Below are positions 17,375 to 53,633 of a stretch of DNA of 64,000 nt, piece after piece. This DNA is from Rhodospirillaceae bacterium (lineage in GTDB: Bacteria > Pseudomonadota > Alphaproteobacteria > Rhodospirillales > JABHCV01): positions 12,759-76,758 of the forward strand of contig JABHGV010000058.1 of the NCBI GenBank assembly GCA_018671895.1, read 5' to 3'. Below the pieces are notes generated by a model. It had not been told where the DNA came from. It saw only the letters and a program-made list of their open reading frames with translations, and did not search any database. The translations under genes and the position numbers were made by a program. The stretch's first letter is position 1. The number at the start of each line of letters is the position of its first letter.

Positions 17375-18724
17375 ATGATTTCCGAACTTTCAAAAAAATA
17401 CGACCTGATGGTGCCGCGTTATACCAGCTACCCGACGGCGCCTCATTTCAGCGAAACCGTCGATGCCGAAACCTACCGGCGCTGGCTCGGCGAGTTGGAC
17501 CCGAACATACCGCTGTCGCTGTACTTCCACATCCCGTTCTGCGACGAAATGTGCTGGTTCTGCGGCTGCTATACCAAGATCGTCAAACGCTATCAGCCGG
17601 TATCGGATTATCTGGACGTCCTGCTTGGAGAAATAGACCTTGCCGCCGATGCCTTGGGCACCCGTTTCAAGGCCAAGCACCTGCATTGGGGTGGCGGCAG
17701 CCCGACAATGCTAAAGGGCCCCGACTGGTCGCGCATCATCGACCGGCTTCGCGACCGCTTCGACATTGACGACACCGCCGCCATCGCCGTCGAACTGGAC
17801 CCACGCACGGCAACTGAAGATTACGTCAAGGCGCTGGCCACAGCCGGCGTCAATCGCGCCAGTATTGGTGTGCAAAGCTTCGATGACGACATCCAAAAAG
17901 CCATCAACCGCATCCAGCCCTACGCGATCACCGCCCAGGTTATTGGCTGGCTGCGCGATAACGACATCAACGACATCAACATGGACATGATGTACGGCCT
18001 GCCGAACCAGACCGTCGACATGGTCGCCCAGGAAACCGACATGGCCATCGGCCTGAAACCTGTGCGCGTCGCCCTGTTCGGCTATGCCCATGTGCCGTGG
18101 ATGAAGTCGCACATGAAAATGATCGACGAAGACGCCCTGCCCGATGCCGATGAACGCTGGAAACAATTCGAGGTCGCCTCGAAGAAATTCATCGATGCCG
18201 GATACATTGCCGTCGGCCTCGACCATTTCGCCCTGCCTGATGATGAAATGGCGGTGGCGCTGGAATCAAACGCCCTGCACCGAAATTTTCAGGGCTACAC
18301 GGCGGACTCGGCCCCGGCCATGCTCGGTTTCGGGGCCTCGGCCATCGGTCATTTGCCACAAGGCTATATACAGAATGCATCGCCGCTAAAGGAATACCGC
18401 GATACCGTCTCGGGCGGAGAATTCGCCATCGCCCGTGGCTTCGCGCTGGCCCCCGAAGACCGCCTGCGCAGCGAGATTATCGAACGCCTGATGTGCGACC
18501 TGGCTGTCGATCTGGACGAAGTCGCCAAAAGGCACAACGCCGATGTCACCATGTTCATTCCGGAAATGGCGAAGCTGACCGATATGGCCAACGATGGCAT
18601 TGTTACCATCGGCAACAACAAAATTCAGGTAACCGAAACCGGTCGTCCGTTTGTGCGACTGGTCGCCGCCGCCTTCGATGCTTATTTATCGCAAGGCAAG
18701 GCGCGGCATTCACGCGCCGTTTAG
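17375..18724 (+). CDS. hemN: oxygen-independent coproporphyrinogen III oxidase (radical SAM)
   Basis: Radical-SAM motif HIPFCDEMCWFCGC plus GGGSPT. 449 aa. Confidence 0.9.
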   Translation: MISELSKKYDLMVPRYTSYPTAPHFSETVDAETYRRWLGELDPNIPLSLYFHIPFCDEMCWFCGCYTKIVKRYQPVSDYLDVLLGEIDLAADALGTRFKAKHLHWGGGSPTMLKGPDWSRIIDRLRDRFDIDDTAAIAVELDPRTATEDYVKALATAGVNRASIGVQSFDDDIQKAINRIQPYAITAQVIGWLRDNDINDINMDMMYGLPNQTVDMVAQETDMAIGLKPVRVALFGYAHVPWMKSHMKMIDEDALPDADERWKQFEVASKKFIDAGYIAVGLDHFALPDDEMAVALESNALHRNFQGYTADSAPAMLGFGASAIGHLPQGYIQNASPLKEYRDTVSGGEFAIARGFALAPEDRLRSEIIERLMCDLAVDLDEVAKRHNADVTMFIPEMAKLTDMANDGIVTIGNNKIQVTETGRPFVRLVAAAFDAYLSQGKARHSRAV

Positions 18725-25641: not shown

Positions 25642-26322
25642 ATGAACACTCCTCGGACAAATAACGCCATCGGCCTCGAGACGGCTAAAATGCTGCTCGA
25701 TATCAAGGCCGTGAACTTCCGCCCCGAAGAGCCCTATATCCTGACATCCGGTTGGGCCAGTCCGGTCTATATCGACTGTCGCAAGGTGATTTCCTTTACC
25801 GAAGAACGCCGCCGCATCATGCAGCTGGCCGTCGAAATGCTCGATGACAAAATCGGTTTCGACAAGATCGATTATGTGGCCGGTGGCGAGACGGCGGGAA
25901 TTCCCTACGCCGCATGGATTGCCGAGGCCGCCTCGACGCCGATGCTCTATGTTCGCAAGAAACCGAAAGGCTTCGGGCGCAACGCCCAGATCGAAGGCGA
26001 CATGGCCGAAGGTGCGCGCGTCTTGTTGGTCGAAGATCTGGCTACCGACGGTGCCTCGAAAGTGACTTTCGTAAATGCGCTCAGAAATGCCGGGGCCGAG
26101 GTCAGTGATGCTTTCGTTGTGTTCTTTTACGGTGTTTTTTCCGGCGCCCTGGAAAATTTGCAAAAAGACGGCATCAACCTGCATTATTTAGCGACCTGGC
26201 ACGATGTTCTCGCCGCGGCCGAGGCCGGGAACTATTTTCCCTCTCAAGCCATTGAAGGCGTTAGAGAATTTCTAGCCGACCCGATCGCATGGTCGGTTAA
26301 CAACGGCGGCAAAGCTTCCTGA
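25642..26322 (+). CDS. pyrE: orotate phosphoribosyltransferase
   Basis: PRPP-binding motif VLLVEDLATDGAS, with SGWASPVYIDCR near the N-terminus. Confidence 0.9.
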   Translation: MNTPRTNNAIGLETAKMLLDIKAVNFRPEEPYILTSGWASPVYIDCRKVISFTEERRRIMQLAVEMLDDKIGFDKIDYVAGGETAGIPYAAWIAEAASTPMLYVRKKPKGFGRNAQIEGDMAEGARVLLVEDLATDGASKVTFVNALRNAGAEVSDAFVVFFYGVFSGALENLQKDGINLHYLATWHDVLAAAEAGNYFPSQAIEGVREFLADPIAWSVNNGGKAS

Positions 26323-27850
26323 AGAAAGACCGTAAACCTGTCGGTTTTTCTGACATTTCCGGGTCACTGGATTCTGCAATAAATGGCAGTTTTGCGGTAA
26401 TCCTGAAGCCTCCGTGCTCGGGAAAATCCATGAAAATCTCGCCGCCATGGGCTCGAATGGCCGTCCGTGCAACCGCCAGCCCCAACCCCACCCCTCCGGT
26501 CTCCCGACTGCGAGAATTTTCTATCCGGTAGAACGGCGCAAACACCTGTTCTTGCTCACTTTTTTGGATACCCGGGCCATCGTCCGTGACCATAATCCGC
26601 ACCACTGAATCATCTTGAACAAACGACACTTCGGCACGCCCCCCATATTGGCAGGCATTGTCGATCAGATTCTGAAAGGCCCTTTTCAGCGCTGTTGATC
26701 GCCCTCGGAAAATGAGCTTCTCCGGCCCAGAACAGATAGCATCCTTGCCGCCGTCAACGGCATCATCAACAAGGCTTTGCAACATCGCAGCAAGATCAAA
26801 ACGGGCCGTTGGTTCGTCAGCAGCCTCATCGCGCGCAAATGACAGGGTGGCCGCGATCATTTCTTCCATCTGGACAAGGTCGGCCATCATCTTGTGTTTC
26901 TGTTCTTCGTCTGCAATCAGTTCGGCCCGCAGTCGCATACGGGTAATCGGCGTTCGAAGATCATGCGAGATCGCAGCCAACATCTGCGTGCGGTCATGAA
27001 TGAAGCTGCGCAGCTTTCGCTGCATATCATTAAAGGCTATGGAGGCGCGGCGAACCTCGCGCGGTCCGTCTTCGGCAAGGGGTGGCGCATTGACGTCCCG
27101 TCCCAGCCTTTCGGCGGCCTTGGCGAACAACCCCAGCGGCCCGGCAGAACGATGAACGGCCCAGATCGAAAATATAATGACGGCAAACATCATCAAGGTG
27201 ATGCTTAACATTCCTTGCGACCACCAGAACGGCCTGAACCTTTCCGCTGGGGCCGCGACATTGAGCCAACTGTCATCTGACAGGCGCAAGGATGCTACCA
27301 ACACACGCCCTCCGTGCCATAGCCTGGACATACGACCGAACCGACTAATTTCATTTTCGCGTCCCATATGGTGGCGCATGGCGAACATGGGATCGTCATC
27401 ACTTTCCCAATGTTCATCACCGTCATGCCCCCGCCGGGAACGCCAATGTTCGGGGATGGTTTCGGGCATTGTCTGCTGGACCTGTCGAAAGGAGACGCGG
27501 ACACCATCTTCATCGACGTTATCGAGATAATGAACCAGCGACTTCCTGAGTGCCCGCAACCGCCAGCTTTTATCGTTTACTGGCGGCAGAATGCTGCGCT
27601 GTGTCCAGGTGAAGCTGAACCCCGGCCCCCACAACGTGCGAGCAACTTCTATTCGCCGATCCGGTGGCGTGTGCTCCAGGGTCTCGTAGGCAGCGACAAT
27701 TCTCTCGGACATCTGTCTGCCGCTGATCGTCGATAATTCCTCATCACGGGTGCCGGAATAAATGGCGAGGCTGATGAGGTGCGAGACAATCAGTCCGGCA
27801 AGCAGCACCAGAACGGTCCGACCAAAGATGGAATTCGGCAGAATTCTCAT
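26297..27850 (-). CDS. sensor histidine kinase (EnvZ-like) with a His/Asp-rich periplasmic loop
   Basis: Two TM segments, a HAMP domain, H-box AAISHDLRTPIT, N-box NLIDNACQY and G-box GGVGLGLAV. The periplasmic stretch reads EHWRSRRGHDGDEHWESDDDPMFAMRHHMG. Confidence 0.85.
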   Translation of the reverse strand: MRILPNSIFGRTVLVLLAGLIVSHLISLAIYSGTRDEELSTISGRQMSERIVAAYETLEHTPPDRRIEVARTLWGPGFSFTWTQRSILPPVNDKSWRLRALRKSLVHYLDNVDEDGVRVSFRQVQQTMPETIPEHWRSRRGHDGDEHWESDDDPMFAMRHHMGRENEISRFGRMSRLWHGGRVLVASLRLSDDSWLNVAAPAERFRPFWWSQGMLSITLMMFAVIIFSIWAVHRSAGPLGLFAKAAERLGRDVNAPPLAEDGPREVRRASIAFNDMQRKLRSFIHDRTQMLAAISHDLRTPITRMRLRAELIADEEQKHKMMADLVQMEEMIAATLSFARDEAADEPTARFDLAAMLQSLVDDAVDGGKDAICSGPEKLIFRGRSTALKRAFQNLIDNACQYGGRAEVSFVQDDSVVRIMVTDDGPGIQKSEQEQVFAPFYRIENSRSRETGGVGLGLAVARTAIRAHGGEIFMDFPEHGGFRITAKLPFIAESSDPEMSEKPTGLRSFFRKLCRRC

Positions 27851-28578
27851 GTCTCGACATCCGGCGTAAACATATAACCGCCGCTTCTGATAGTCTTGAT
27901 ATGAGACGGGTTCTTGGCATCGTCCTCGATCTTGCGGCGCAGGCGGCTGACCTGCACATCGATACTGCGATCAAAGGGCTGAGCTTCACGTCCTCGCGCC
28001 AGATCGAGCAACTGTTCTCGGCTCATAACCCTTCCGGGGTGCGTGACAAAGGCATACAGAAGCTCGAACTCGCCACCGCTGAGACTAACCAGAACACCAT
28101 CGGGTGAGGTCAGTTCGCGCTTGTTCGCATCCAGAGACCAACCAGCAAAGCGATATCCCGTACCGTCACTTCGATCACCGCCGCCGGGCTTGCCCTTGCC
28201 GCCAATTCCTTCAAAGCGGCGCAAGACGGCCTTGATCCGGGCCAACAGTTCGCGCGGATTAAACGGTTTCGCCAGATAATCATCGGCACCCATTTCAAGG
28301 CCAATGATGCGGTCGGTTTCCTCGCCCATGGCCGTCAACATGATGATCGGCATCTTGGATTCAGCCCGCAGGTTACGGCACAAGGTCAATCCGTCTTCGC
28401 CGGGCAGCATCAGATCGAGAACGATCAGATCGATATTCCAGTCAGCCAGTGCCTTTTTCATCTCGCGGCCATCGGCAACCGTCGTGGTGCGCAAACCATG
28501 TTTGTCGAGGAACCGCCCCAGCAAATCTCGGATCTCGCGGTCGTCATCAACGATTAAAATGTGAGGCGTCGTTTCCAT
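27847..28578 (-). CDS. OmpR-family response regulator
   Basis: METTPHILIVDDDREIRDLL, DLIVLDLMLPGEDG, and a winged-helix C-terminus (RLRRKIEDD...IKTIRSGGY). I chose the start at ATG 28578 rather than the ORF-track start at 28800. Confidence 0.9.
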   Translation of the reverse strand: METTPHILIVDDDREIRDLLGRFLDKHGLRTTTVADGREMKKALADWNIDLIVLDLMLPGEDGLTLCRNLRAESKMPIIMLTAMGEETDRIIGLEMGADDYLAKPFNPRELLARIKAVLRRFEGIGGKGKPGGGDRSDGTGYRFAGWSLDANKRELTSPDGVLVSLSGGEFELLYAFVTHPGRVMSREQLLDLARGREAQPFDRSIDVQVSRLRRKIEDDAKNPSHIKTIRSGGYMFTPDVET

Positions 28579-28624
28579 ATCGCCGACTATAGCGCCTTCG
28601 AAACAAACACACCCCCAAATCATG

Positions 28625-28667
28625 GTAACGGCGCGTAACAAACGGGGCCGCTGAAACATTTGGTTAC
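28625..28667. promoter_or_regulatory. GTAAC direct repeat at 10-bp phasing plus an inverted copy, in a divergent intergenic region
   Basis: GTAAC at 28625 and 28635, with GTTAC (its reverse complement) at 28663. The repeats lie between the OmpR-like gene and the Met/His-rich gene. Confidence 0.3.
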
Positions 28668-28757
28668 AAAAACACCCCGAGTCCGAAATACCACGGCAAC
28701 AAGTAGGTGTTTGAATGAACCCATCAAAACATTCAACCGAACCGATGGAGACGAACA

Positions 28758-29084
28758 ATGAAAAACAGAACTTTGACTTTAACGGCGGCGGCAACGGCAA
28801 TTGCGCTTGTCACTGCCTTCACCGCCTTTCCCGCAATGGCGCATAACCCCCAGGGCATGGGGAATCATGACATGAAAAGCCAAGGCATGGGTATGGGCAA
28901 AGGAATGATGGGAAAGCACAAGGGCAATATGGCTGAACATCGCGGCAAGGGCATGAAAGGCCAATGCGAAGACCAGGACAAAATGAGCGAATACCGCCAA
29001 GAACACAGAGATGAGCACAAAGGCGAGCACATGGGCAAGAACATGGACAAGCATAAGGGCAACGGCCGTCACAACGCCCGTTGA
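28758..29084 (+). CDS. periplasmic Met/His-rich small protein (possible metal-binding protein)
   Basis: Signal peptide ...FTAFPAMA, then HNPQGMGNHDMKSQGMGMGKGMMGKHKGNMAEH...HKGEHMGKNMDKHKG. Confidence 0.6.
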   Translation: MKNRTLTLTAAATAIALVTAFTAFPAMAHNPQGMGNHDMKSQGMGMGKGMMGKHKGNMAEHRGKGMKGQCEDQDKMSEYRQEHRDEHKGEHMGKNMDKHKGNGRHNAR

Positions 29085-30504: not shown

Positions 30505-31719
30505 ATGGATTACGAGAAATTCTTTTCCGACAGCATCGCCGACCTGAAATCAGAAGGTCGCTACCGGATCTTCTGTGACCTTGAACGCAAGGCCGGTGAA
30601 TTTCCAAGGGCGCTCAACCATCGCCCCAACGGTGAAGTTCATGAAATCACTGTCTGGTGCTCCAATGACTACATGGGCATGGGGCAAAATGAACACACCC
30701 TGTCCGCCATGCATGAAGCCATCGACAAGTGCGGTGCCGGAGCAGGTGGTACCCGCAATATTTCCGGCACCAACCATTACCATGTGCTTCTGGAACAGGA
30801 ACTGGCCGATTTGCACGGCAAAGAATCGGCGCTGATTTTCAATTCCGGCTGGATGGCCAACATGACGGCGTTGAGCACACTGGGGGCGATGATTCCCGGC
30901 TGCGTAATCGTGTCAGATTCCCACAATCACAATTCAATGATTGAAGGCATTCGCCATTCGCGTGCCGAAAAGAAAATCTTCAAACACAACGATGTCGAAG
31001 ACCTGGACCGTTTCCTCAGTCAGTACGATGTCGACACGCCCAAACTGGTTGCTTTTGAGTCCGTTTATTCAATGGATGGGGATATAGCCCCAATCAAAGA
31101 AATCTGCGATGTCGCCGACAAACACAACGCCATGACCTTCCTTGATGAAGTGCACGCTGTCGGCATGTACGGACCGCGAGGTGGCGGTGTCGCCGAACGC
31201 GACGGTCTGATGGATCGCATCACCATTGTCCAGGGCACCCTGGCCAAGGCCTTCGGTGTTGTTGGCGGTTACATCGCCGGGTCAGACGCCATGTGCGACT
31301 TTATCCGCTCCAACGGATCCGGCTTTATCTTCTCATCTTCGATCCCGCCGGGAGTAGCGGCCGCAGCCAAGGCTTCGATCAAGCACCTGAAGGAACACAA
31401 CGAGTTGCGCGAACGCCATCAGGAACGCGCCGCCACCCTGAAACGTCGACTGACGGAAGTCGGCATCCCGGTGATGCCGTCGGTCAGCCACATTGTGCCA
31501 GTGCTGGTTGGCGACGCAGTCCTGTGTAAACAGGCCAGTGATGACCTGTTGTTGAAACACGACATTTACGTCCAGCCGATCAACTATCCGACCGTAGCAC
31601 GTGGCACCGAACGCCTGCGCTTTACACCGACCCCCCTGCACACGGACGAACACATGGACCATCTGGTCACATCGATCCGCGAGGTGTGGAACCGTTTGGG
31701 ATTGAAGGAAGCGGCCTGA
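30505..31719 (+). CDS. hemA: 5-aminolevulinate synthase
   Basis: The N-terminus reads [26 protein letters not shown]-enzyme motifs ESVYSMDGD and GTLAKAFG are present. 404 aa. Confidence 0.92.
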
Positions 31720-32896: not shown

Positions 32897-33457
32897 TTAG
32901 CCGTTCAACAGGGCCTCGACCTCATCTTGAGACAGTTCAGCTTCTTCATCACCGCCCTCGGTCACGGCGGCTTCCTTTCGGCGCTCTCCGCCCATATAGG
33001 CTGGGTTATCACGGCGTCGCCTGTCGGGACCAAAATACAATCCTGCACGCACAAAAGGGCGCGGACGTTCAATGATAGAACGGACCCGGGAGTATAACCC
33101 CTTTGCCGAAATCGGCTTAGCCAGAAACTCACTGACACCGGCATCGCGGGCTTCTACGACGCGGTTCATTTCCGTGTGTCCCGTCAACATGATGATCGGC
33201 ACGAACGGATTGGGACTGTCCTTACCGGTGCGCACAAGCCGCGTAAAATCGAGACCGTCAAGGGGGTCCATATTCCAGTCACAAATGATGATATCAGCGG
33301 GAAAATGACGCAATTCCTTGAAAGCATCGGCACCGTCACCCGCGTCGATACAGTTCTTTACGCCCAAGGCATGCAAAATGCTCGTGACGAGTGCACGCAT
33401 GTGCTTGTTGTCATCGACAATCAAAAAGTTCAGTCGCTCAAGGTTGTACTCTGCCAT
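32897..33457 (-). CDS. single-domain CheY-like response regulator with an Arg-rich C-terminal tail (paralog 1)
   Basis: LIVDDN, IIICDWNMDPLDG, IIMLTG and LAKP, then RPFVRAGLYFGPDRRRRDNPAYMGGERRK. Confidence 0.85.
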   Translation of the reverse strand: MAEYNLERLNFLIVDDNKHMRALVTSILHALGVKNCIDAGDGADAFKELRHFPADIIICDWNMDPLDGLDFTRLVRTGKDSPNPFVPIIMLTGHTEMNRVVEARDAGVSEFLAKPISAKGLYSRVRSIIERPRPFVRAGLYFGPDRRRRDNPAYMGGERRKEAAVTEGGDEEAELSQDEVEALLNG

Positions 33458-33587: not shown

Positions 33588-34109
33588 CTAACTTGCATCG
33601 CCATTGGGTGAAACCTCTTTGCCTCGCTTCACGCGGCGGTCTTCGCCATCGAATTCACCGTCCTTACGACGACGGTCAGGGCCGAAGAAATCTTCGCTCT
33701 TAATGAAGGGCCGATCATCCTCAAGGACTGAAACAATCCTTGACATCAATGACTTAGCGGAAATAGGCTTGCCCAGGAAGTCATTGACCCCGGCGTCACG
33801 GGCCTGCTTGGCAAGACTTTCTTCGGTGTAACCGGTGATCATTATGATCGGCAGGAATTTTGTGACTTCGACAGGCTCCGAGCGAATTCGACGCACACAT
33901 TCCAGTCCATCAACACCGTCCATTTTCCAGTCAACGATCGCTAGGTCGGCTTCAAAACTTGATAAAACCTCAAGCGCCTCTGCACCGTCGCGGGCTTCTT
34001 CAATATCTTCGAATCCCAGGGCCTGAAGAATGGTTCTGATGAGTGTACGGAAATGCAGATTGTCTTCGACAATCAGCACAGCAACCTGCTCCAGATCCAA
34101 ATCCGCCAT
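33588..34109 (-). CDS. single-domain CheY-like response regulator with an Arg-rich C-terminal tail (paralog 2)
   Basis: LIVEDN, LAIVDWKMDGVDG, IIMITG and LGKP, then RPFIKSEDFFGPDRRRKDGEFDGEDRR. Start chosen at MADLDLEQ. Confidence 0.85.
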   Translation of the reverse strand: MADLDLEQVAVLIVEDNLHFRTLIRTILQALGFEDIEEARDGAEALEVLSSFEADLAIVDWKMDGVDGLECVRRIRSEPVEVTKFLPIIMITGYTEESLAKQARDAGVNDFLGKPISAKSLMSRIVSVLEDDRPFIKSEDFFGPDRRRKDGEFDGEDRRVKRGKEVSPNGDAS

Positions 34110-34216
34110 AAGCCCTCCCCGGCCCAACACTCATTTCAATTGCCTGTTCGTGTTTTTAATTGTCAGCTGCAATTGAGTACCTGACTAATATACAGGTATA
34201 TTCACACCGTCCTCAA

Positions 34217-34650: not shown

Positions 34651-35160
34651 TCACATGCCCTTTGAATAATCGTAGGCAATTTGGCGTTTATCCTCGCCCA
34701 TGAATTCGAGTTGTCGGCGACGCCTGTCGGGTCCGAAATAACTTTCGGTCCGAATGAACGGGCGTGGATTTTCAATGATCGAGCAAATTCTTTTGTACAG
34801 CAGCTTTGCCGATATGGGTTTCGCCAGAAACTCGTTAATACCCGCATCTCGGGCCTCGACAATTTTGTCCATCCCCAATTCACCGGAAACCATGATGATG
34901 GAAGCGAATGGATCGGTGCCATGCTCTCCTGACCGGATATTGCGCACCAGATCAATCCCGCCCATGGGCTCCATTAGGTTGTCGGTGAAGATGATATCTA
35001 TCTCATTGGTTTCCAGGGTTTTCAAGGCATGTTCTCCACTATGAGACTCCTTGATGTCACGTATACCAAGCGCCCTGAGGACTCGCTTGAGGATCAAAAG
35101 CATCGGTTCATAATCGTCAACGACCAGAACCTTCAGTTCGCTAATGTTGAAATCAGACAT
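34651..35160 (-). CDS. single-domain CheY-like response regulator with an Arg-rich C-terminal tail (paralog 3)
   Basis: LVVDDY, IIFTDNLMEPMGG, IIMVSG and LAKP, then RPFIRTESYFGPDRRRRQLEFMGEDKR. Start chosen at MSDFNISE. Confidence 0.85.
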   Translation of the reverse strand: MSDFNISELKVLVVDDYEPMLLILKRVLRALGIRDIKESHSGEHALKTLETNEIDIIFTDNLMEPMGGIDLVRNIRSGEHGTDPFASIIMVSGELGMDKIVEARDAGINEFLAKPISAKLLYKRICSIIENPRPFIRTESYFGPDRRRRQLEFMGEDKRQIAYDYSKGM

Positions 35161-35244
35161 ATTCCCCAAAGTATCCAGAACACAGTTATTGTTGCCTTGG
35201 GTATCAGCATAGAACAAAAGACGTTGAAACAATCTACCGAATCT

Positions 35245-42121: not shown

Positions 42122-42769
42122 ATGGAATGGTTTGTTTCCAAACAACGCGTCGCTTATGAGGCGGCGTCTGATTTTATGCAGCAAAGGGCCGCCGATATCC
42201 GCGCCGGATCTGCGCCTGACGCCGTCTGGCTGCTTGAACACCCGCCCTTGTATACCGCAGGAACCAGCGCATCGGAGGCCGATTTGCTGGATGCCGGCCC
42301 CTTCCCCGTTTATCAGACCGGCCGTGGCGGCCAGTATACCTATCACGGGCCCGGACAGCGCATCGCCTATGTCATGGTCGATCTGAAAAATCGGAATTCC
42401 GACGTCCGCGCCTATGTCCGCGATCTGGAAGCCTGGATCATCGCCGCACTGGCGCGCTTTGGCGTGACCGGAGAGCGACGCGAAGGACGAGTCGGCATCT
42501 GGGTTGCCCACGATGATGGCCGGGAAGACAAAATCGCCGCCATTGGCGTGCGCGTCCGCCGCTGGGTGACCTTTCACGGCATATCCATCAACGTCGCGCC
42601 TGATCTATCCCACTATCAGGGCATCGTGCCATGTGGCATCAGTGGCCATGGGGTGACATCGCTGGCGGAACTGGGGATCGAAGCGAGCATGGCCGATATG
42701 GATGTGGCGCTGAAAGAAACCTTTGCCGAGGTCTTTGCCATGACACCGGGGGCGGACATAGAACTCTAG
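42122..42769 (+). CDS. lipB: lipoyl(octanoyl) transferase
   Basis: [25 protein letters not shown] and KIAAIGVR are present. I chose the start downstream of the tRNA (42122; 42059 is also possible). Confidence 0.85.
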
Positions 42770-43038
42770 GCAGTCGGCAGGGATTTAAACCCGTCTTCAG
42801 TGGGATCACAGGGTTCCAGGGCGAGCGCATCGACAACGGCCAGATGCGGCCCTTCCCGGCACAGCGCCAACATTGCATCGACATCCGCATCATCACCGCT
42901 AAACACCGCTTCGACACTGCCGTCACGGCGATTGCGAACCCATCCGGACAAACCCTTGATATCAGCCTGCTGACACGTCCAGGCGCGATACCAGACGCCC
43001 TGCACGCGCCCTGTAATGCGCACATGAATGGACTTCAT
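42766..43038 (-). CDS. acyP: acylphosphatase
   Basis: [13 protein letters not shown] is the phosphate loop, with [12 protein letters not shown] following. ATGA overlap with the upstream gene. Confidence 0.85.
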
Positions 43039-43340
43039 CAGATACCCGGTAAATTGTGGAAGCCGAGCCAGACCGGCTCGTCGCCGGTGACCTCGCATTC
43101 AATGACAGATTTGATGCCGTCTGGTGGATCGCCATCGGAGAATTGTCGCAGCATATCAAGAACCAGGGCAACTTCTCCGGCGAACAGGGCCTCGGTGGTT
43201 TCATTGGATGACCGATCCCTGGACCATCCATGAACGCCCAGGTTTTCGGCCCGTGACAACATCCAGCCGTGCATGCCCACCCGGTTAAAATCGCCTTCTA
43301 TGGCGACCCGAACGACCATTTCATGACTTCCGAATGACAT
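43038..43340 (-). CDS. acylphosphatase-like protein with substituted catalytic residues
   Basis: VAIEGDFNRVGMH replaces the VxGxVQGVxFR loop, and GWSRDRSSNETTE replaces GWVxNxxDGxVE. The start directly abuts the pccA stop (TAAATG). Confidence 0.55.
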   Translation of the reverse strand: MSFGSHEMVVRVAIEGDFNRVGMHGWMLSRAENLGVHGWSRDRSSNETTEALFAGEVALVLDMLRQFSDGDPPDGIKSVIECEVTGDEPVWLGFHNLPGI

Positions 43341-45338
43341 TTACTCGAACTCGATAATAACCTGATCAACGGCGAGATTATCACCGGGGACGGCCTTGAC
43401 GGCGGCAACGACTCCGTCCTGTTCAGCGTGCAAAACATTTTCCATTTTCATTGCCTCGATCACCGCCAGGGTATCGCCGCCCTTGACCTTTTGGCCTTCC
43501 TTGACGGCAAGCGACATCAACAGGCCGGGCATTGGCGAGGCAACAATCTTCGACATGTCAGGTGCGACTTTTATCGGCATCAGGGCATACAATTGCGCAG
43601 CCTTTGATTTCAGCACCCTGACATCAATACTGAGACCCGAATGGGTCAGCCGATAGGCAACGCCGCTGCGTTCGACCTGCAGGCAGACGATGCGGCCATT
43701 AATTTGGGCATGATACAGGGGCTCACCCAATTGCCAGTCGCTACGAACATGCCAGTTTTCTTCGCCATCGTCGGAATTGATCGTGACATCATGACCACCG
43801 GTGACGACCTGTGTCGAAACCGAATGGCTTTCGCCATCCATCAATACTATCCAGTCCGCCAAGACTGTCCGTTCGTGTCCATCACATTGGCCACTGATGG
43901 ATGCGGCACGTTCCTGATAGGCCCGGTGGATAGACGCAGCAACAGCCATCAACAGGCCCGGTTCATCGTGGGGAACGTCGGCACTGTTGAAACTGTCGCC
44001 ATATTCATCGGCAATAAAATCGGTGCTGAGCTTGCCCGACTGAAAACGGGAATGCGACATGATCGCCGCCAGAAAAGCGATGTTATGATCGACGCCACGA
44101 ATGTAAAAAGCGTCCAATGCCTGGCCCATTCGCGCGATGGCCTCATCCCTGTCAGAACCATACGTGACCAGTTTGGCGATCATCGGATCATAATGAATTG
44201 AGATTTCATCGCCTTCGGTCACGCCGGTATCAAGCCTAACGTTGGCATTTTCTTCCGGACCAACGAAGTGCGAAAGACGACCAATGGACGGCAGGAACCC
44301 GCGGAACGGATTTTCAGCATAGACGCGGGATTCCATCGCCCAGCCTTTTGGCGAAATATCCGTTTGCTTCAACGTCATTTTTTTACCAGCCGCGATCCTG
44401 ATCATCTGTTCAACCAAATCGATACCGGTCACCATTTCGGTCACCGGGTGTTCGACCTGCAGCCGAGTATTCATTTCCAGAAAATAGAAATTGCGTTTGT
44501 TGTCGACGATAAATTCGACGGTCCCGGCCGACACGTACTTAACTGCCTTCGACAGCTTGACGGCCTGTTCCCCCATGGCGGCACGGGTTTTCTCGTCAAG
44601 AAACGGACTGGGTGCTTCTTCGATGACCTTTTGGTGTCGGCGCTGGATGGAGCATTCGCGCTCACCCAGATAAATGGTATTGCCGTGGCTGTCGGCGAGA
44701 ACCTGAATTTCAATGTGACGCGGTTGTTCGATGAACTTTTCAACAAACACCCGGTCATCGCCAAAACTGGACTTGGCCTCGCGTCGGGCGGCGCTGAAAC
44801 CATCGCGGGCTTCGGCATCGTTGCGCGCAATTCGCATGCCCTTGCCGCCACCACCGGCAGACGCCTTCAACATTACCGGATAACCAACCTTCTTTGCTGC
44901 CTTGACCGCCTGGGCCGGCGTGTCCAATTCGGCAGCGTGACCGGGAACCGTGCTGACGCCAGCTTTGTCGGCCAGCTTCTTCGATTCAATCTTGTCACCC
45001 ATCTTGGTAATCGCGTGAACGCCGGGGCCGATAAAGGCAATGCCGTTACGCTTTAGCTTGCGGGCAAAGGAAGCGTTTTCAGACAAGAAGCCATAGCCGG
45101 GATGAACGGCATCGGCCTTGGTTTTCTTGATAGCCCCAAGAATCTTGTCAATATCGAGATAGCTCTGAGAAGATGGCGCCGGACCAATTGCAATGGATTC
45201 ATCTGCCATTTCCACATGTAGCGCATCGGAGTCAGCATCGGAATAGACGGCAACCGTCTTGATACCCATACGTCTGGCGGTTTTTATGACCCGGCAAGCA
45301 ATTTCACCCCGGTTGGCGATAAGTATTTTTTTGAACAT
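43341..45338 (-). CDS. pccA: propionyl-CoA (acyl-CoA) carboxylase alpha subunit (biotin carboxylase + BCCP)
   Basis: MFKKILIANRGEIACR, an ATP-grasp domain, and a C-terminal biotinylation motif EAMKMEN. Confidence 0.9.
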   Translation of the reverse strand: MFKKILIANRGEIACRVIKTARRMGIKTVAVYSDADSDALHVEMADESIAIGPAPSSQSYLDIDKILGAIKKTKADAVHPGYGFLSENASFARKLKRNGIAFIGPGVHAITKMGDKIESKKLADKAGVSTVPGHAAELDTPAQAVKAAKKVGYPVMLKASAGGGGKGMRIARNDAEARDGFSAARREAKSSFGDDRVFVEKFIEQPRHIEIQVLADSHGNTIYLGERECSIQRRHQKVIEEAPSPFLDEKTRAAMGEQAVKLSKAVKYVSAGTVEFIVDNKRNFYFLEMNTRLQVEHPVTEMVTGIDLVEQMIRIAAGKKMTLKQTDISPKGWAMESRVYAENPFRGFLPSIGRLSHFVGPEENANVRLDTGVTEGDEISIHYDPMIAKLVTYGSDRDEAIARMGQALDAFYIRGVDHNIAFLAAIMSHSRFQSGKLSTDFIADEYGDSFNSADVPHDEPGLLMAVAASIHRAYQERAASISGQCDGHERTVLADWIVLMDGESHSVSTQVVTGGHDVTINSDDGEENWHVRSDWQLGEPLYHAQINGRIVCLQVERSGVAYRLTHSGLSIDVRVLKSKAAQLYALMPIKVAPDMSKIVASPMPGLLMSLAVKEGQKVKGGDTLAVIEAMKMENVLHAEQDGVVAAVKAVPGDNLAVDQVIIEFE

Positions 45339-45446
45339 TCGGTGCCTCAGGCAATGTGACCTGTAAATTTCATTATCAACATAATCCGCTATCCGTCGTG
45401 GTCTAGCAAGACCCGCCATTTACTTTGATTAGCACAAACGCATATT

Positions 45447-47849
45447 ATGGATTTCAATATTAACACGATGTCCTGGGGGGGGAGGTCGCAAAAGCTGTTT
45501 AGCCAACTGAATTTGGGAACCAAGGTCGCCTTGCTGGTCAGCACCATTCTGGTGGTGGTTTCGCTTGTCGGCACGGCTTTGTTTGTCAAAATCCAATTCC
45601 AAACCTTCGAGTCCGATGCGCTGCGTGGCGCGACAGTTGCGCTGACTTTGCTTGAATCCCTGCATACGGAAACAATGCTCCACCGAACGAACCAAGAAGA
45701 CAAATATACGACCATTCGTAATCTTAACAGCATCATGAACCGGGTCGAGATGAATTCAAACAAGTTGAATTTATGGCTTGTGCAGGGACCAAAAATTATT
45801 GAATTTCAGAAAAGGAATAATCGTTATGTTGAGCCCCCCCAGGACGATATAGATCGGCAGGTCATGTCAACCGGAAAACCAGTCCAGAAAATGCGGTCAG
45901 ACAACGTTTTTCGTCTGACCTGGCCGGTCATCATGGGACAAGGCATGGCCAGCGATACAAAGTGCCTGACATGCCATAACGAAACAATGGGCATACATAA
46001 TGATGATATCATTGGCGCCTATTCCGTCGCCTTTAACGTCACAAACGCCAGACACCGCTTAAACAAAGAGTCAACGAATGCCATTGCTCTCGCCATCCTG
46101 GCTTCCACCCTGATCGCCATTTCGACGGCCTTGTTTCTTAACAAAATTGCCGGTCGGCCGTTGACCGAGATGACCGGGCTGATGCGTCGTCTTGCCAACG
46201 ATGATCTTGATGTCAAAATTCCAGAACACAATCGATCCGATGAAATCGGCGAGATGGCTCGTGCACTTCAGGTGTTTCGGAAAAACACAATACGGCGCCA
46301 TACCGCTGAAGCTGAAAGTCATACCAGTGAAGTCTACCTGAATTCAGTTGTGAAAAGCATGCTTAACGGGCTGATCGTTATCGATGCCCAGGGCATCGTG
46401 CAATCATACAACCCGGCCGCGGCCAGGATATTCCTGTACGAAGAAGGCGAAGTGCTTGGACAAAATGTTTCCATGTTGATGCCTGAACCGGATCACTCTC
46501 AACACGACCAATATCTGAGCCGTTATCTGAGCGATGCAAAACCACACATCATCGGTTCTGGCCGAGAAGTAAAAGGCAAGCGCAAGAACGGCGACGTATT
46601 TCCGATGGAGTTATCTGTCAACGAAATCAAAATCGGCAGCAAGCATATGTTCGTCGGCACGATTAATGATATCACCGAGCACAACAAAATGACCGAAGCG
46701 CTGGTCGACAGCGAAGGACGATTCAGGGATTTCGCCCAGGCCGCATCTGACTGGTTCTGGGAAACAGATGAAAATCTTAATTTCACCTATATTTCAGAAC
46801 AGTTTTTCAGACTGTCAAAAATTCGTAAGGAAGACATTATCGGTCAGCATCTGTTCAAGGTTATATCCGAGAATAGTGGCTCCGATGCATCCAAAGATAT
46901 TCTTCAAGAATCGATCGACATCACAGAAGTATTTCATGACTTCAGTTACGACATCAAAGGGCGTGACGGCTCTCTTTCATATGTCAGCCTGAACGGCATG
47001 CCGTACTTTTCCGAGGAAGGAATTTTTTGCGGTTACCGTGGCACCGGCACCGACATCACCAAGCGTAAGACCGCCGAGATGCAACTTCTTGCAGCCAAGG
47101 AAGACGCCGAATCAGCCAGCAAGGCCAAGTCGGATTTCCTGGCAAATATGAGTCATGAATTGCGAACGCCACTTAATGCCATCATTGGCTTTTCAGAAAC
47201 CATGTCATCGGGAATCGTTGGCGAGGTAGAGAACGAAACCCACCGCGAGTACACGAAGCATATTTTTGAATCCGGCATCCATCTGTTGGGGCTGATCAAC
47301 ACGATCCTCGACCTGTCACGCATCGAATCCGGCAAAATGTCTCTACGTCCTGAAAAAATTGATTTGCCCGAGTTCCTGCGTGAATTGGTCAATTCCGTCG
47401 AACCGCTGATGAAAAAGAACAACAACAAATTATCTCTGGATATGGCCAATAATATTGGTTCTATCCATTCAGACCCTGTCGCGCTTACTCAAATTCTGCT
47501 CAATCTTCTGGATAATGCGGGCAAGTTTACGACCCATGGAAAAATTTCCCTGTCAGTCGAACACACCACGGAACCCCTCGTCGACTCTGTTACTTTCACC
47601 ATTACGGACAGCGGAATTGGAATGTCAGAAGTCCAGATGGAGAAGCTTTTCCATCCGTTCTCGCAGGGTGACTCAATGATCAGCAAAGTGTACGGAGGCA
47701 CCGGGCTGGGCCTGTCAATTTGTCGAAGGATCTGTGACATGATGGGCGGTGAGATTTCCGTAGAAAGCACACTGGATGTCGGCTCTGTATTCACCGTCAC
47801 CATTCCGGTGTCTTTCGAAAATCAGCAGAATTCTGACGACAGCATTTAA
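45447..47849 (+). CDS. sensor histidine kinase: TM, periplasmic CxxCH (Tll0287/DUF3365-like) domain, TM, HAMP, FixL-type heme PAS, PAS, HisKA, HATPase
   Basis: CLTCH is encoded at 45963-45977. The FixL-like PAS reads [48 protein letters not shown]. The H-box is [12 protein letters not shown] and the G-box is GGTGLGLSI. Confidence 0.85.
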
Positions 47850-47854
47850 GTCGC

Positions 47855-49387
47855 CTACAGCGGGATATTACCGTGCTTTTTCCACGGATTATCGAGCTTC
47901 TTGTTCCTTAGCATTCTAAGGGACCGGCAAATGCGCATGCGAGTGTTGTGCGGCATGATCACATCGTCAATAAAACCGCGATGTCCAACGATAAACGGAT
48001 TGGCAAAACGTTGCCTGTATTCTTCAGTACGTTCCTCGATTTTGTCGTCATCGCCAATGTCGTTCCTGAAAATAATTTCGACCGCTCCTTTTGGTCCCAT
48101 CACTGCAATTTCAGCACTCGGCCAGGCGAAATTAACATCGCCGCGCAGATGTTTGGAGCTCATCACGTCGTAAGCCCCGCCGTAAGCCTTTCGCGTGATC
48201 ACCGTAACTTTCGGCACGGTCGCTTCGGCAAAGGCATACAAAAGTTTCGCCCCGTGTTTGATAATGCCGCCATATTCCTGCGCCGTTCCAGGCAAGAACC
48301 CCGGCACATCGACGAAAGTAACAACGGGGATGTTGAAACAATCACAGAAACGAACAAAGCGCGCTGCTTTTTTCGAAGATTCAATATCAAGGCAACCTGC
48401 CAGCACCATGGGCTGATTGGCAACGATACCGACTGTACTGCCTTCCATACGACCGAAGCCGATCAGAATGTTGCCAGCGTAGTCCGGTTGCAGTTCGAAG
48501 AAATCACCTTCATCGACGACTTTGACGATCAACTCGCGCATGTCATAGGGCTTGTTGGGATTGTCTGGCACCAGCGTGTCGAGTGATTCCTCGATACGGT
48601 TTGGGCTATCGGGTGTCGGGCGAACCGGCGGTTTTTCGCGATTGTTCGCCGGCAGAAAATCAATAAACCGACGCAACATCAACAAAGCATCGGCATCATT
48701 CTCGAAGGCCTTGTCAGCGACGCCTGATTTGGATGTATGGGTCAACGCCCCGCCCAGTTCTTCGTGGGTGACGTCTTCCTGGGTCACTGTCTTAACCACG
48801 TCGGGTCCGGTGACAAACATATAAGATGTATTTTCGACCATGAATATGAAGTCTGTCATAGCCGGTGAGTATACCGCGCCGCCTGCACACGGCCCCATAA
48901 TCATCGACACCTGCGGCACGACACCACTGGCCAGCACGTTACGCTGGAAGACTTCTGCGTATCCAGCCAACGAATCGACGCCTTCCTGAATGCGGGCACC
49001 GCCTGAATCGTTCAACCCGATCACCGGTGCCCCGACCTTCATCGCCTGATCCATGATCTTGCAGATTTTTTCAGAATGAGATTCCGACAACGAACCGCCC
49101 AATACGGTGAAGTCCTGACTGAAGACAAAAACCAGTCGACCATTGATCTGGCCGTATCCGGTAACGACACCATCCCCAGGAATGGTTTGCTTACTCATAT
49201 TGAAATCAGAACATCGATGTTCGACGAACATGTCCCATTCTTCGAAGCTGTCCGGATCTAGCAGCATCTCAATACGCTCGCGCGCCGTCAGCTTGCCCTT
49301 TTTGTGCTGGTTCTCGATGCGCTTTTTGCCGCCGCCGAGGCGGGCCTGCTGACGCTTTTCTTCAAGTTGACGAATAATATCGTGCAT
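47855..49387 (-). CDS. pccB: propionyl-CoA carboxylase beta subunit (carboxyltransferase)
   Basis: 510 aa. The N-terminus reads [13 protein letters not shown]. Carboxyltransferase motifs SGGARIQEG and AYGGAYDVM are present. Confidence 0.92.
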
Positions 49388-50140: not shown

Positions 50141-50839
50141 TCAGGCACCCATAAGACGCGTCATGGCATCGGAGATATCGCCGAAACGATCAATGACAAT
50201 GTCGGCCCCGGATTCTTTCAATTCATTACTTTCGTGGTATCCCCAGGCGACGCCAATGGCCATAGTTCCGGCATTCATAGCCATTTCCATATCAAAAGTG
50301 GTATCGCCAATCATGACCACCCTCGCGGCATCAACACCTGTTTCGGACATGGCATTGTGAAGCATTTCAGGATGTGGCTTGCCAGCCGCTCTGTCTGCTG
50401 TTTGCAGGGTAACAAAGCGCCCTTCAAGATCATGCGTGCCAAGCGTCGAGACCAGCCCCCGGTGCGCTTTCCCCGTGGCGACGCCAAGCAGCCAGCCGTC
50501 TTGTTCCAATATGTCGAGGGCTTCGATAGCACCTGTATATAATGGTTCGTGGACCTCACCCTTGTCGCGAAGACCGGAAAAGACCCGGCGATACCCTTCG
50601 CGAATATCCCATACTGCCGCATCATCAAAATCTGGGAACAACCCGGCTATTGCCGTTTCAAGCGGCAGACCAATGATCCTGCGCACGGCATCGGACGCTG
50701 GCGGTGGTGCTCCATGATCAATGCAGGCCTGCTGCATGGAATGAACGATCGAATGAAGTGAGTCTACAAGCGTTCCGTCACAATCGAAGACGGCCAGCTT
50801 TAATTGATTTGATTGGTCAGACGGTGAAGCAGTATCCAA
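50141..50839 (-). CDS. HAD family hydrolase (phosphoglycolate phosphatase-like)
   Basis: AVFDCDGTLVDS (DxDGT), GVATGK and IGDTTFDMEMA are present. Confidence 0.8.
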   Translation of the reverse strand: MDTASPSDQSNQLKLAVFDCDGTLVDSLHSIVHSMQQACIDHGAPPPASDAVRRIIGLPLETAIAGLFPDFDDAAVWDIREGYRRVFSGLRDKGEVHEPLYTGAIEALDILEQDGWLLGVATGKAHRGLVSTLGTHDLEGRFVTLQTADRAAGKPHPEMLHNAMSETGVDAARVVMIGDTTFDMEMAMNAGTMAIGVAWGYHESNELKESGADIVIDRFGDISDAMTRLMGA

Positions 50840-52631: not shown

Positions 52632-53633
52632 TCACGATAAGTTTATTTGATCGCTGCCAGCAAACGGGTCTAGTTCGGCGTCTTCATCAAAACCAAGGAA
52701 TTCCCACGTTGCCATCATGTGTTCCGGCAGTGGGGCAATAATTTCGAGCACACCTCCCGAAGGATCGGGAATGCGTATGGCACGGGCATGCAGGTGGAGC
52801 TTGCGGCTTAACCCCGGCCCCTTGAGGAAGGCTTCAGCACCTCCGTACTTACCATCTCCCATAATCGGCGTTTCCAGCGCCAGGGCGTGAACACGCAGTT
52901 GATGGGTGCGGCCGGTCTCCGGCTCCATCACCAACCAGGCCGCCTTGCGTGACGCTTTCTCGACGGTGCGATAATAGGTAACGGCTCGCTTGCCGCCATC
53001 CGGTTCCGGGACAACGCGCTCGCCCTTAGCGCCCGGCATTTTCGCCAGCGCCAAATCTATTTTCCCATCTTTTGGTTCCGGCACACCGACGACAATTGTC
53101 CAGTACACCTTGCGAGCCGTTTTCGAGCGAAATACCGACGTCAGTTTCGCCGCCTGAGAAGCTCCTCGTGCCAGCACCAGAACGCCCGAAGTATCCTTAT
53201 CCAGTCTATGCACCAGTCGCGGACGTTCCGGCGCTTCGAAACGCAGGGCATCAAGCATGCCATCGACACTGCGGGTAATTCCGGTCCCCCCCTGTACGGC
53301 AAGCCCCGGAGGCTTGTTGATAACGATCAAATTATCATCCATATGCAGGACGGATTCACGGATCATCCGGGCATCTGCGTCGCTGATATCTGCTTTGCTT
53401 TTCACTGGTCTTTTGCCTTCAGGGGCCTTGCCAAGGGGCGGCACCCGAATGGCTTGGCCAGCCTCGATACGCGTCGATGCCTTGGCCCGTTTACCATCAA
53501 GACGAACCTGTCCCTTTCGCAACAGCTTTTGCAGGTGGACATGACTTAGGTCCGGGTAATGACGCTTGAACCAGCGATCAAGACGCAAGTCATCCTCGTC
53601 GTCGGTGACATCAACAGTACTGACCCCGGTCAT
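52632..53633 (-). CDS. RluA-family 23S rRNA pseudouridine synthase (RluC/RluD-like)
   Basis: An S4-like N-terminus (LRLDRWF...LLRKGQVRLDG) and the catalytic motif HRLDKDTSG. Confidence 0.85.
   Translation of the reverse strand: MTGVSTVDVTDDEDDLRLDRWFKRHYPDLSHVHLQKLLRKGQVRLDGKRAKASTRIEAGQAIRVPPLGKAPEGKRPVKSKADISDADARMIRESVLHMDDNLIVINKPPGLAVQGGTGITRSVDGMLDALRFEAPERPRLVHRLDKDTSGVLVLARGASQAAKLTSVFRSKTARKVYWTIVVGVPEPKDGKIDLALAKMPGAKGERVVPEPDGGKRAVTYYRTVEKASRKAAWLVMEPETGRTHQLRVHALALETPIMGDGKYGGAEAFLKGPGLSRKLHLHARAIRIPDPSGGVLEIIAPLPEHMMATWEFLGFDEDAELDPFAGSDQINLS

Follow-up and report, generated by a model that had tools for sequence, protein, structure and literature searches.

The subject of this study is a sensor histidine kinase encoded at positions 45447–47849, on the forward strand, of a 64,000-nucleotide stretch of contig JABHGV010000058.1 (hereafter the window) from a Rhodospirillaceae bacterium (assembly GCA_018671895.1). 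The gene lies between pccA and pccB, both of which are on the opposite strand. Its product probably carries two hemes, a heme c in a periplasmic domain and a FixL-type heme b in a cytoplasmic PAS domain.

Domain layout of the kinase

The features of the gene and of its translation are listed below by nucleotide (nt) position in the window, all on the forward strand (+), with the basis of each assignment in brackets; lengths are in amino acids (aa) and TM denotes a transmembrane helix.

45447–47849, +, sensor histidine kinase gene, 800 aa (open reading frame and translation)
45525–45587, +, TM1, about residues 27–47 (Kyte-Doolittle hydropathy)
45588–46076, +, periplasmic sensor domain, residues 48–210 (AlphaFold2 models, Foldseek, sub-threshold PF11845 matches)
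45675–45677, +, codon of Met77, candidate distal (sixth) heme-c ligand at the end of the N-terminal helix (conservation and analogy to GSU0935 Met60)
45963–45977, +, CLTCH (C173, C176, H177), predicted covalent heme-c motif with the proximal His (sequence, conservation)
46077–46139, +, TM2, about residues 211–231 (Kyte-Doolittle hydropathy)
46152–46286, +, HAMP, residues 236–280 (PF00672, 39.3 bits against a cut-off of 25)
46332–46682, +, PAS1, residues 296–412, FixL-type heme-b PAS by sequence (E 2e-36 to 1dp6/8js5, pocket residue map)
46503–46505, +, codon of His353, equivalent of the BjFixL proximal His200 (alignment; invariant)
46563–46565, +, codon of Arg373, equivalent of BjFixL Arg220, the O2 contact (alignment; invariant)
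46704–47066, +, PAS2, about residues 420–540, no cofactor predicted (Pfam, weak, about 441–538)
47124–47333, +, HisKA/DHp, residues 560–629, with the phospho-accepting His570 at nt 47154–47156 (PF00512, 72.2 bits; H-box)
47472–47810, +, HATPase_c, residues 676–788, N, G1, F and G2 boxes intact (PF02518, 99.1 bits; motifs)

The product is a class-I histidine kinase with the order TM1, periplasmic domain, TM2, HAMP, PAS1, PAS2, HisKA and HATPase_c. As in other class-I (HisKA) kinases, HisKA and HATPase_c score above their Pfam cut-offs, and the H, N, G1, F and G2 boxes are found at residues 569–577, 687–694, 721–725, 735–738 and 751–756, the H-box reading SHELRTPLN. Hydropathy analysis gives exactly two hydrophobic segments, which enclose 163 aa; residues 48–210 are placed outside the cytoplasm by these two flanking segments and by the HAMP domain that follows TM2. 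An alternative start at Met8 would yield a protein of 793 aa, and the orthologs start at the equivalent of residue 17.

An earlier note on this DNA had described the same reading frame, two transmembrane helices around an extracytoplasmic domain of ~155 aa, the CLTCH motif at nt 45963–45977 and a first PAS domain at nt 46344–46682. The reading frame exists and codes for 800 aa, the two helices agree with the hydropathy profile once the enclosed length is adjusted to 163 aa, the motif is read directly at residues 173–177, and the Pfam PAS match covers residues 300–409. The peptides quoted in that note are all present in the translation apart from a single wrong letter, the sequence having DDIIG and not GDIIG, and the layout is upheld by domain assignment with Pfam, AlphaFold2 (AF2) and Foldseek, a check that the note had proposed.

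The periplasmic CxxCH domain and its family

The codons at nt 45963–45977 read TGCCTGACATGCCAT. Chance does not explain the encoded CxxCH, since the kinase has only 5 cysteines in all and the expected number of such motifs for its composition is ~0.0009. The motif is the sole CxxCH of the protein and the sole one among the credible open reading frames of at least 100 aa in the window.

A search of 1.84 billion cluster representatives with a profile of nine orthologous periplasmic domains returned 223 proteins at an expect value (E) ≤ 0.001, with 162 at E ≤ 1e-10. CxxCH occupies the equivalent place in 137 of 148 further representatives that were listed and retrieved, and the others are for the most part short or partial sequences. 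About 7 of 150 family representatives join the periplasmic CxxCH domain to a FixL-type PAS domain; these representatives, the orthologs and two genome loci make up an alignment of 13 dual-heme proteins. The CxxCH motif is invariant in the alignments of the 9 orthologs, of 35 diverse members (pairwise identity <45%) and of the 13 dual-heme proteins. Within the 35 diverse members the invariant residues are W110, D133, R156, P160, C173, C176 and H177, while M77, R80, K116, D136 and M181 are at least 90% conserved. Met77 is also invariant in the 13 dual-heme proteins and at least 90% conserved in a set of 70 diverse members.

The domain is fused to HAMP in 56 of the 70 members scanned, and the other fusion partners are histidine kinases (32), methyl-accepting chemotaxis proteins (MCP, 29), GGDEF/EAL proteins (8) and, occasionally, hemerythrin (2). 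Fusion to HAMP and to histidine kinase, MCP or GGDEF/EAL outputs is what is expected of a sensor module. The family (P0121–P0315) also includes PilZ fusions as well as proteins of ~160–290 aa, some of which are on long contigs and some of which are partial. The commonest Pfam match is PF11845 (6 of 9 and 17 of 35 members scanned), with a best E of only 8e-4. None of 51 relatives obtained by a profile search of an annotated protein collection carries a PF11845 annotation, and no NCBIfam model matches the periplasmic domain. The 223 cluster representatives are a family without a curated Pfam model (at threshold) or NCBIfam model.

Predicted fold and comparison with heme-c Cache sensors

AF2 models computed from the 9 and the 35 sequences have pLDDT values of 82 and 94.8 and pTM values of 0.78 and 0.88, respectively. 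Both models run in the order long N-terminal helix, second helix, strand, two short helices, two strands, CxxCH helical insert, last strand and C-terminal helix leading into TM2. The CxxCH helix is positioned between the third and fourth strands; in the domain numbering of the models, the strands are 107–115 and 141–150, and helices 119–134 carry C126, C129 and H130. The best Foldseek matches are the extracellular single-Cache sensors WalK (probability 1.0), KinD, DcuS, TlpQ and TlpB, and GSU0582 (3b47) is found at rank 3 or 4 with a probability of 0.85–0.93. The prediction for the periplasmic domain is thus a single-Cache fold in which the helix bearing CxxCH precedes the last strand as an insert.

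Two groups of heme-c sensors are relevant for comparison. The Tll0287/DUF3365 family was renamed sCache_heme in February 2026 (bioRxiv 10.64898/2026.02.01.703092). That preprint describes a Cache fold in which a short helix between β3 and β4 bears a 99%-conserved CxxCH, and covalent heme c in two members co-expressed with a cytochrome c maturation (Ccm) plasmid. In the same preprint, a signalling-fused member binds NO tightly (k_off about 6e-4 per s), forms no stable O2 complex and is given NO-sensor-like properties, and a redox-like member is a stand-alone protein with Cys/His ligation. In the Geobacter sensor GSU0935 the heme is ligated by His144 and Met60, and NO or CO displaces the Met (PMC8396549). 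The Geobacter His/Met sensors switch spin state on oxidation and reduction and are discussed as redox sensors, and they bind NO and CO reversibly (PMC8396549).

With sCache_heme, for which one comparator is the P. azotoformans Cache_heme-HAMP receptor (bioRxiv 10.64898/2026.02.01.703092, 10.64898/2026.05.25.727664), the window domain shares its extracytoplasmic position between two TM helices with HAMP next, the predicted single-Cache fold, the strict CxxCH between β3 and β4, and family outputs of the histidine kinase, MCP and GGDEF/EAL types. It differs in that the candidate for the sixth ligand is a conserved Met, not Cys or water. GSU0582 and GSU0935 (PDB 3B47, 3B42) likewise have CxxCH near the C-terminal end of the domain, and in GSU0935 the labile distal ligand is a Met of the N-terminal helix, Met60, to which Met77 may correspond. 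In contrast to the window protein, GSU0582 and GSU0935 are MCP chemoreceptors and not kinases, share 11–13% identity with it, and have no cytoplasmic heme PAS domain.

PAS1 and its relation to FixL

When PAS1 (residues about 292–417) is compared with all PDB sequences, the BjFixL heme domain (1dp6/8js5) is matched at E 2e-36 and the RmFixL (Sinorhizobium) heme domain (1d06) at E 9e-27, whereas EcDOS/DosP is matched only at ~1e-10. PAS1 and the BjFixL heme domain align over 126 residues without a gap; 59 of these are identical (47%), and the FG loop has the same length in both proteins. The BjFixL pocket residues and their equivalents in the window protein are as follows.

His200, H353
Tyr203, Y356
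Arg206, R359
Tyr207, Y360
His214, H367
Ile215, I368
Gly217, G370
Arg220, R373
Phe232, F385
Leu236, L389
Ile238, V391 (conservative Ile-to-Val)

From the published FixL structures we take His200 to be the proximal heme ligand and Arg220 to be the residue that contacts O2. H353, Y356, I368, G370 and R373 are invariant in the 9 orthologs and in the 13 proteins of the same architecture, down to 34% identity, and the position of L389 is occupied by Leu except for Ile in one protein. PAS1 is confirmed on sequence grounds as a FixL-type heme-b PAS domain. The earlier note had proposed this match from the context of the proximal His and the IIGxGR arginine, and had named conservation of the proximal His and of CxxCH among orthologs, as well as alignment to FixL heme-PAS domains, among the points on which the proposal would turn. 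The alignment retains the proximal His, the Arg220 equivalent and the distal pocket, and neither the proximal His nor CxxCH varies in any of the orthologs or in the more distant relatives.

The transmitter had been described in the same note as unlike that of FixL, and this holds. The NCBIfam FixL equivalog model NF041777 gives 180.2 bits against a cut-off of 850, and its top-scoring stretch is residues 287–416, which is the PAS1 region; judged in this way, the kinase is not a FixL ortholog. FixL and the window kinase both have a class-I HisKA/HATPase_c transmitter downstream of the heme PAS domain, but the window kinase differs in its SHELRTPLN H-box, in having no fixJ or fixK nearby, and in the additional periplasmic domain, HAMP and PAS2. 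To our knowledge, RmFixL is membrane-anchored and has no periplasmic sensor domain. The mismatched H-box is unremarkable by itself, since many of the other matches also combine a FixL-type heme PAS domain with a non-FixL transmitter, at times with two or three such domains in tandem. Among such proteins, P0007 (Magnetococcus sp.), P0021, P0012 and P0056 are cytoplasmic kinases with 2–3 tandem PAS domains that all bear the FixL His...Arg heme signature, and these are possible multi-heme-b sensors. The tandem-PAS kinases (P0007, P0021) resemble the window protein in having this signature on a non-FixL transmitter, but their hemes would all be cytoplasmic heme b and they lack the periplasmic CxxCH domain.

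Spread of the predicted two-heme architecture

Both predicted heme sites are invariant in 13 of 13 aligned dual-heme proteins. PAS2 is missing from shorter relatives of 647–661 aa (P0008, L007, P0129, P0146 and P0149), in which PAS1 abuts DHp as in FixL, and P0133 and L010 have a GAF domain in its place. The conserved core is on this account the heme-c Cache domain, TM, HAMP, heme-b PAS and kinase. The named genomes with this architecture are all alphaproteobacterial metagenome-assembled genomes (MAGs; Rhodospirillaceae, Thalassospiraceae, Sneathiellales and Rhodospirillales).

A full-text search of the literature found no description of a periplasmic heme-c domain and a FixL-type heme-b PAS domain in one sensor. 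The available texts of the two sCache_heme preprints (bioRxiv 10.64898/2026.02.01.703092, 10.64898/2026.05.25.727664) name PAS generically among the architectures, and a heme-b PAS domain, whether in general or in the same protein, does not come up in them. Both modules are of known kinds, and their pairing is new.

Heme occupancy and the nature of the two signals

Several points weigh against a heme at both sites of the kinase. Occupancy of either site is something we infer. PF11845 matches the whole protein with 12.7 bits and the isolated domain with 16.8 bits (E 0.0095, model positions 8–141 of 144), against a cut-off of 24.1, and no full-length family member scanned reaches E 1e-3 with this model. 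The 9- and 35-sequence profiles gave only chance-level matches to PDB sequences, with Tll0287 (5B82), GSU0582 (3B47) and GSU0935 (3B42) undetected, and a single-sequence search of the periplasmic domain was likewise without a match to the solved heme-c sensors. In the structural comparison, the TM-score to WalK is only 0.5–0.6 and that to GSU0582 is poor (0.31–0.40), the latter possibly reflecting a domain-swapped dimer in the crystal structure, and Tll0287 (5b82) is outside the top 50 Foldseek matches. The role of Met77 as distal ligand is suggested by its conservation and by analogy. In the cytoplasm, the equivalents of Arg206 vary between R, N, H and K and those of His214 between H, Q, R and K among the orthologs. 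No response regulator gene adjoins the kinase in the window or in any of five or six syntenic loci (see below), nor in the other contexts L010 and L014 (L016 has little flank). Cytochrome c maturation genes were not found in the 64-kb window; Ccm capacity is assumed because the host is alphaproteobacterial.

These points bear first on whether the periplasmic site holds a heme at all. PAS1 could be a genuine FixL-type O2 sensor and the only heme site, with the periplasmic CxxCH serving as a thiol/disulfide or metal-binding redox switch, or with the domain being a structural Cache for a small ligand. This would agree with a domain that passes no curated heme-domain model, whose profiles miss the solved heme-c sensors and whose closest fold match, WalK, has no cofactor. 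We nevertheless regard it as very unlikely. The His after CxxC is as conserved as both Cys residues over the family of 223 cluster representatives, and a disulfide switch needs no His. In sCache_heme the corresponding inserted helix also carries the motif, which is 99% conserved there, and covalent heme was found in two Ccm-expressed members (bioRxiv 10.64898/2026.02.01.703092). The domain is extracytoplasmic, where Ccm acts, and a conserved Met is present in its N-terminal helix, as in GSU0935. The description of the domain as typical of Tll0287/DUF3365 in the earlier note stands in part: the predicted fold, the topology and the placement of CxxCH match that family, but the scores of 12.7–16.8 bits fall short of the threshold and the profiles do not reach the solved members. 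Because the layout matches sCache_heme while the PF11845 score stays below threshold, we assign the domain to a divergent sister family of sCache_heme, missed by current models, and do not regard it as a typical member.

If heme c is present, it may, as has been suggested for GSU0582/GSU0935 and DcrA, act as a redox sensor that responds to the periplasmic cytochrome c pool or to ambient potential, and not as a gas sensor. In that case intracellular O2 availability and external electron-transport status would be joined in one kinase. Such a reading keeps both hemes, and redox sensing and gas sensing are not mutually exclusive. The invariant Met77 implies His/Met-type ligation, which in the Geobacter sensors is accompanied by the redox-dependent change in spin state (PMC8396549), and some sCache_heme members are redox-like (bioRxiv 10.64898/2026.02.01.703092). 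However, the signalling-fused member in that preprint is the one that bound NO tightly, the redox-like one being stand-alone with Cys/His ligation, and the Geobacter domains reversibly bind NO and CO too. A purely redox role for heme c is possible, if somewhat doubtful.

A different question is what PAS1 responds to. PAS1 could bind heme and respond to NO, CO or redox state in place of O2, or serve mainly as a transmission or dimerisation module, which would leave the kinase with one effective signal. Heme-PAS relatives, EcDOS among them, can respond to several ligands, PAS1 follows HAMP and is in the signal path from the periplasm, and the equivalents of Arg206 and His214 vary as noted above. 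The features that are most specific to O2 signalling, namely the equivalents of Arg220, Ile215 and Leu236 and the length of the FG loop, are nonetheless invariant in the 13 proteins, and the 47% identity to BjFixL is far above the DosP match. We consider a PAS1 that does not sense O2 unlikely, and a kinase with both hemes, a c-type heme in the periplasm and a FixL-type heme b in the cytoplasm, is the reading that we judge probable.

Genomic context

The two genes that flank the kinase are conserved neighbours.

43341–45419, reverse strand (−), pccA, biotin carboxylase/biotin carboxyl carrier protein subunit of propionyl-CoA carboxylase, divergent from the kinase
47855–49387, reverse strand (−), pccB, carboxyltransferase subunit, convergent with the kinase, the two stop codons being 5 nt apart

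The true start of pccA is probably Met28, at about nt 45338. Past pccB the window has genes for an ATP12-type protein and a HAD hydrolase, and past pccA two acylphosphatase-like open reading frames, lipB and mgtE. The pccA-kinase-pccB arrangement is seen in six or seven related alphaproteobacterial MAG and metagenome loci (among them L001/L009, L005/L007, L006, L008 and L015), in which the identity to the window is only 40–49% for the kinase, 87–89% for pccB and 67–78% for pccA, and the ends of the kinase and pccB genes abut or overlap in the orthologous loci. A functional tie of the kinase to propionyl-CoA carboxylase is possible. Dual-heme relatives are found in other contexts as well (L010, L014 and L016).

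The kinase gene has a GC content of 0.479, compared with 0.535 for pccA and 0.519 for pccB, and is 3–7 points under pccA and pccB in each locus examined (window, L001, L005, L006 and L015). Recent horizontal transfer as the cause was rejected, since the offset and the gene position are shared by relatives with kinases of just 40–49% identity; the low GC content of the kinase is a lineage-wide property.

The lack of an adjacent FixJ-type regulator in the earlier note agrees with the neighbouring genes (acylphosphatase, pccA, pccB, ATP12 and HAD), and the nearest receiver genes in the window are 10–12 kb away from the kinase. Three tandem stand-alone REC proteins of 180–193 aa with no output domain are encoded at 32897–33457, 33588–34130 and 34651–35232, all on the reverse strand (−), and these receivers are candidate phosphotransfer partners. 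An OmpR-type regulator is paired with its own kinase at 26297–28800. A PAS kinase and OmpR-type regulator pair found downstream in L001 and L006 was considered as a conserved partner and rejected, because the window has no room for it between the HAD gene (which ends at 50839) and rluC (52632–53633).

FNR/FixK boxes (TTGAT-N4-ATCAA) number 4 in the window against 3.07 expected, with none upstream of the kinase or hemN, and a promoter and terminator scan of the kinase gene region gave results at or near background. The pccA-kinase intergenic region (45339–45446) and its counterparts in L001, L005, L006 and L008 share a short similar stretch near the pccA start, recognised by eye only, which reads ...ACATAATCCGCTATCC...GGTCTAGCAAG in the window and TATAATCGGTTATAGCCATGGACTAGGCAAG in L005, and which may be a pccA promoter or leader element. 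Two genes of heme synthesis are present in the window, hemN for oxygen-independent coproporphyrinogen oxidase at 17375–18724 (+; TIGR00538, 458 bits) and a 5-aminolevulinate synthase gene at 30505–31719 (+; TIGR01821, 659 bits). In rhizobia, hemN is a classic FixLJ-FixK target. Directly downstream of pccA, two small open reading frames at 42766–43098 (−) and 43038–43340 (−) overlap by ~60 nt as called; one is a clear acylphosphatase, and the other, of 100 aa, has no NCBIfam match and an L015 counterpart that is weakly acylphosphatase-like.

Proposed mechanism and significance

In the proposed scheme the protein would be a dimeric transmembrane histidine kinase with two heme inputs in separate compartments, one for O2 on the cytoplasmic side and one for NO or redox state on the periplasmic side. 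These ligands, the direction in which each would act on the kinase and the way in which the two signals would be combined are inferred. Cys173 and Cys176 would each be linked covalently to heme c by the cytochrome c maturation system, with His177 as the proximal ligand and Met77 as the probable labile distal ligand. If this heme works like those of GSU0582/GSU0935 and of the sCache_heme receptors described in 2026, it would sense periplasmic NO or CO, or redox potential, and displacement of the distal ligand would be relayed via TM2 and HAMP. PAS1 would hold heme b on His353, with Arg373 contacting bound O2, and binding of O2 would lower autophosphorylation as in FixL. Both inputs would meet, via PAS2 in this subclade, at the HisKA/HATPase_c core that phosphorylates His570, and from there the phosphoryl group would pass to a response regulator whose gene lies in another part of the genome.

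A more extended proposal joins three elements: a two-compartment coincidence detector, a gas or redox link to propionyl-CoA carboxylation or central carbon metabolism suggested by the position between pccA and pccB, and a separate His/Met heme-Cache family outside current models. In such a detector the output would be set by the combined states of heme c (NO/redox) and heme b (O2), for example at low O2 with NO at oxic-anoxic interfaces. Taken as a whole, this combination is improbable.

The interest of the pairing is limited by the fact that domain shuffling and multi-sensor kinases are common and that each module belongs to a known kind. Heme gas sensors have so far been studied per cofactor and per compartment, with FixL, DosP and H-NOX in the cytoplasm and the Cache_heme and Geobacter sensors in the periplasm. 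The periplasmic family described here extends the newly described Cache_heme class and offers a conserved Met as a candidate distal ligand. If the two-heme reading is true, such a kinase, with covalent heme c on the periplasmic side and FixL-type heme b on the cytoplasmic side, would lend itself well to the study of how two gas or redox signals are combined across the membrane via HAMP.

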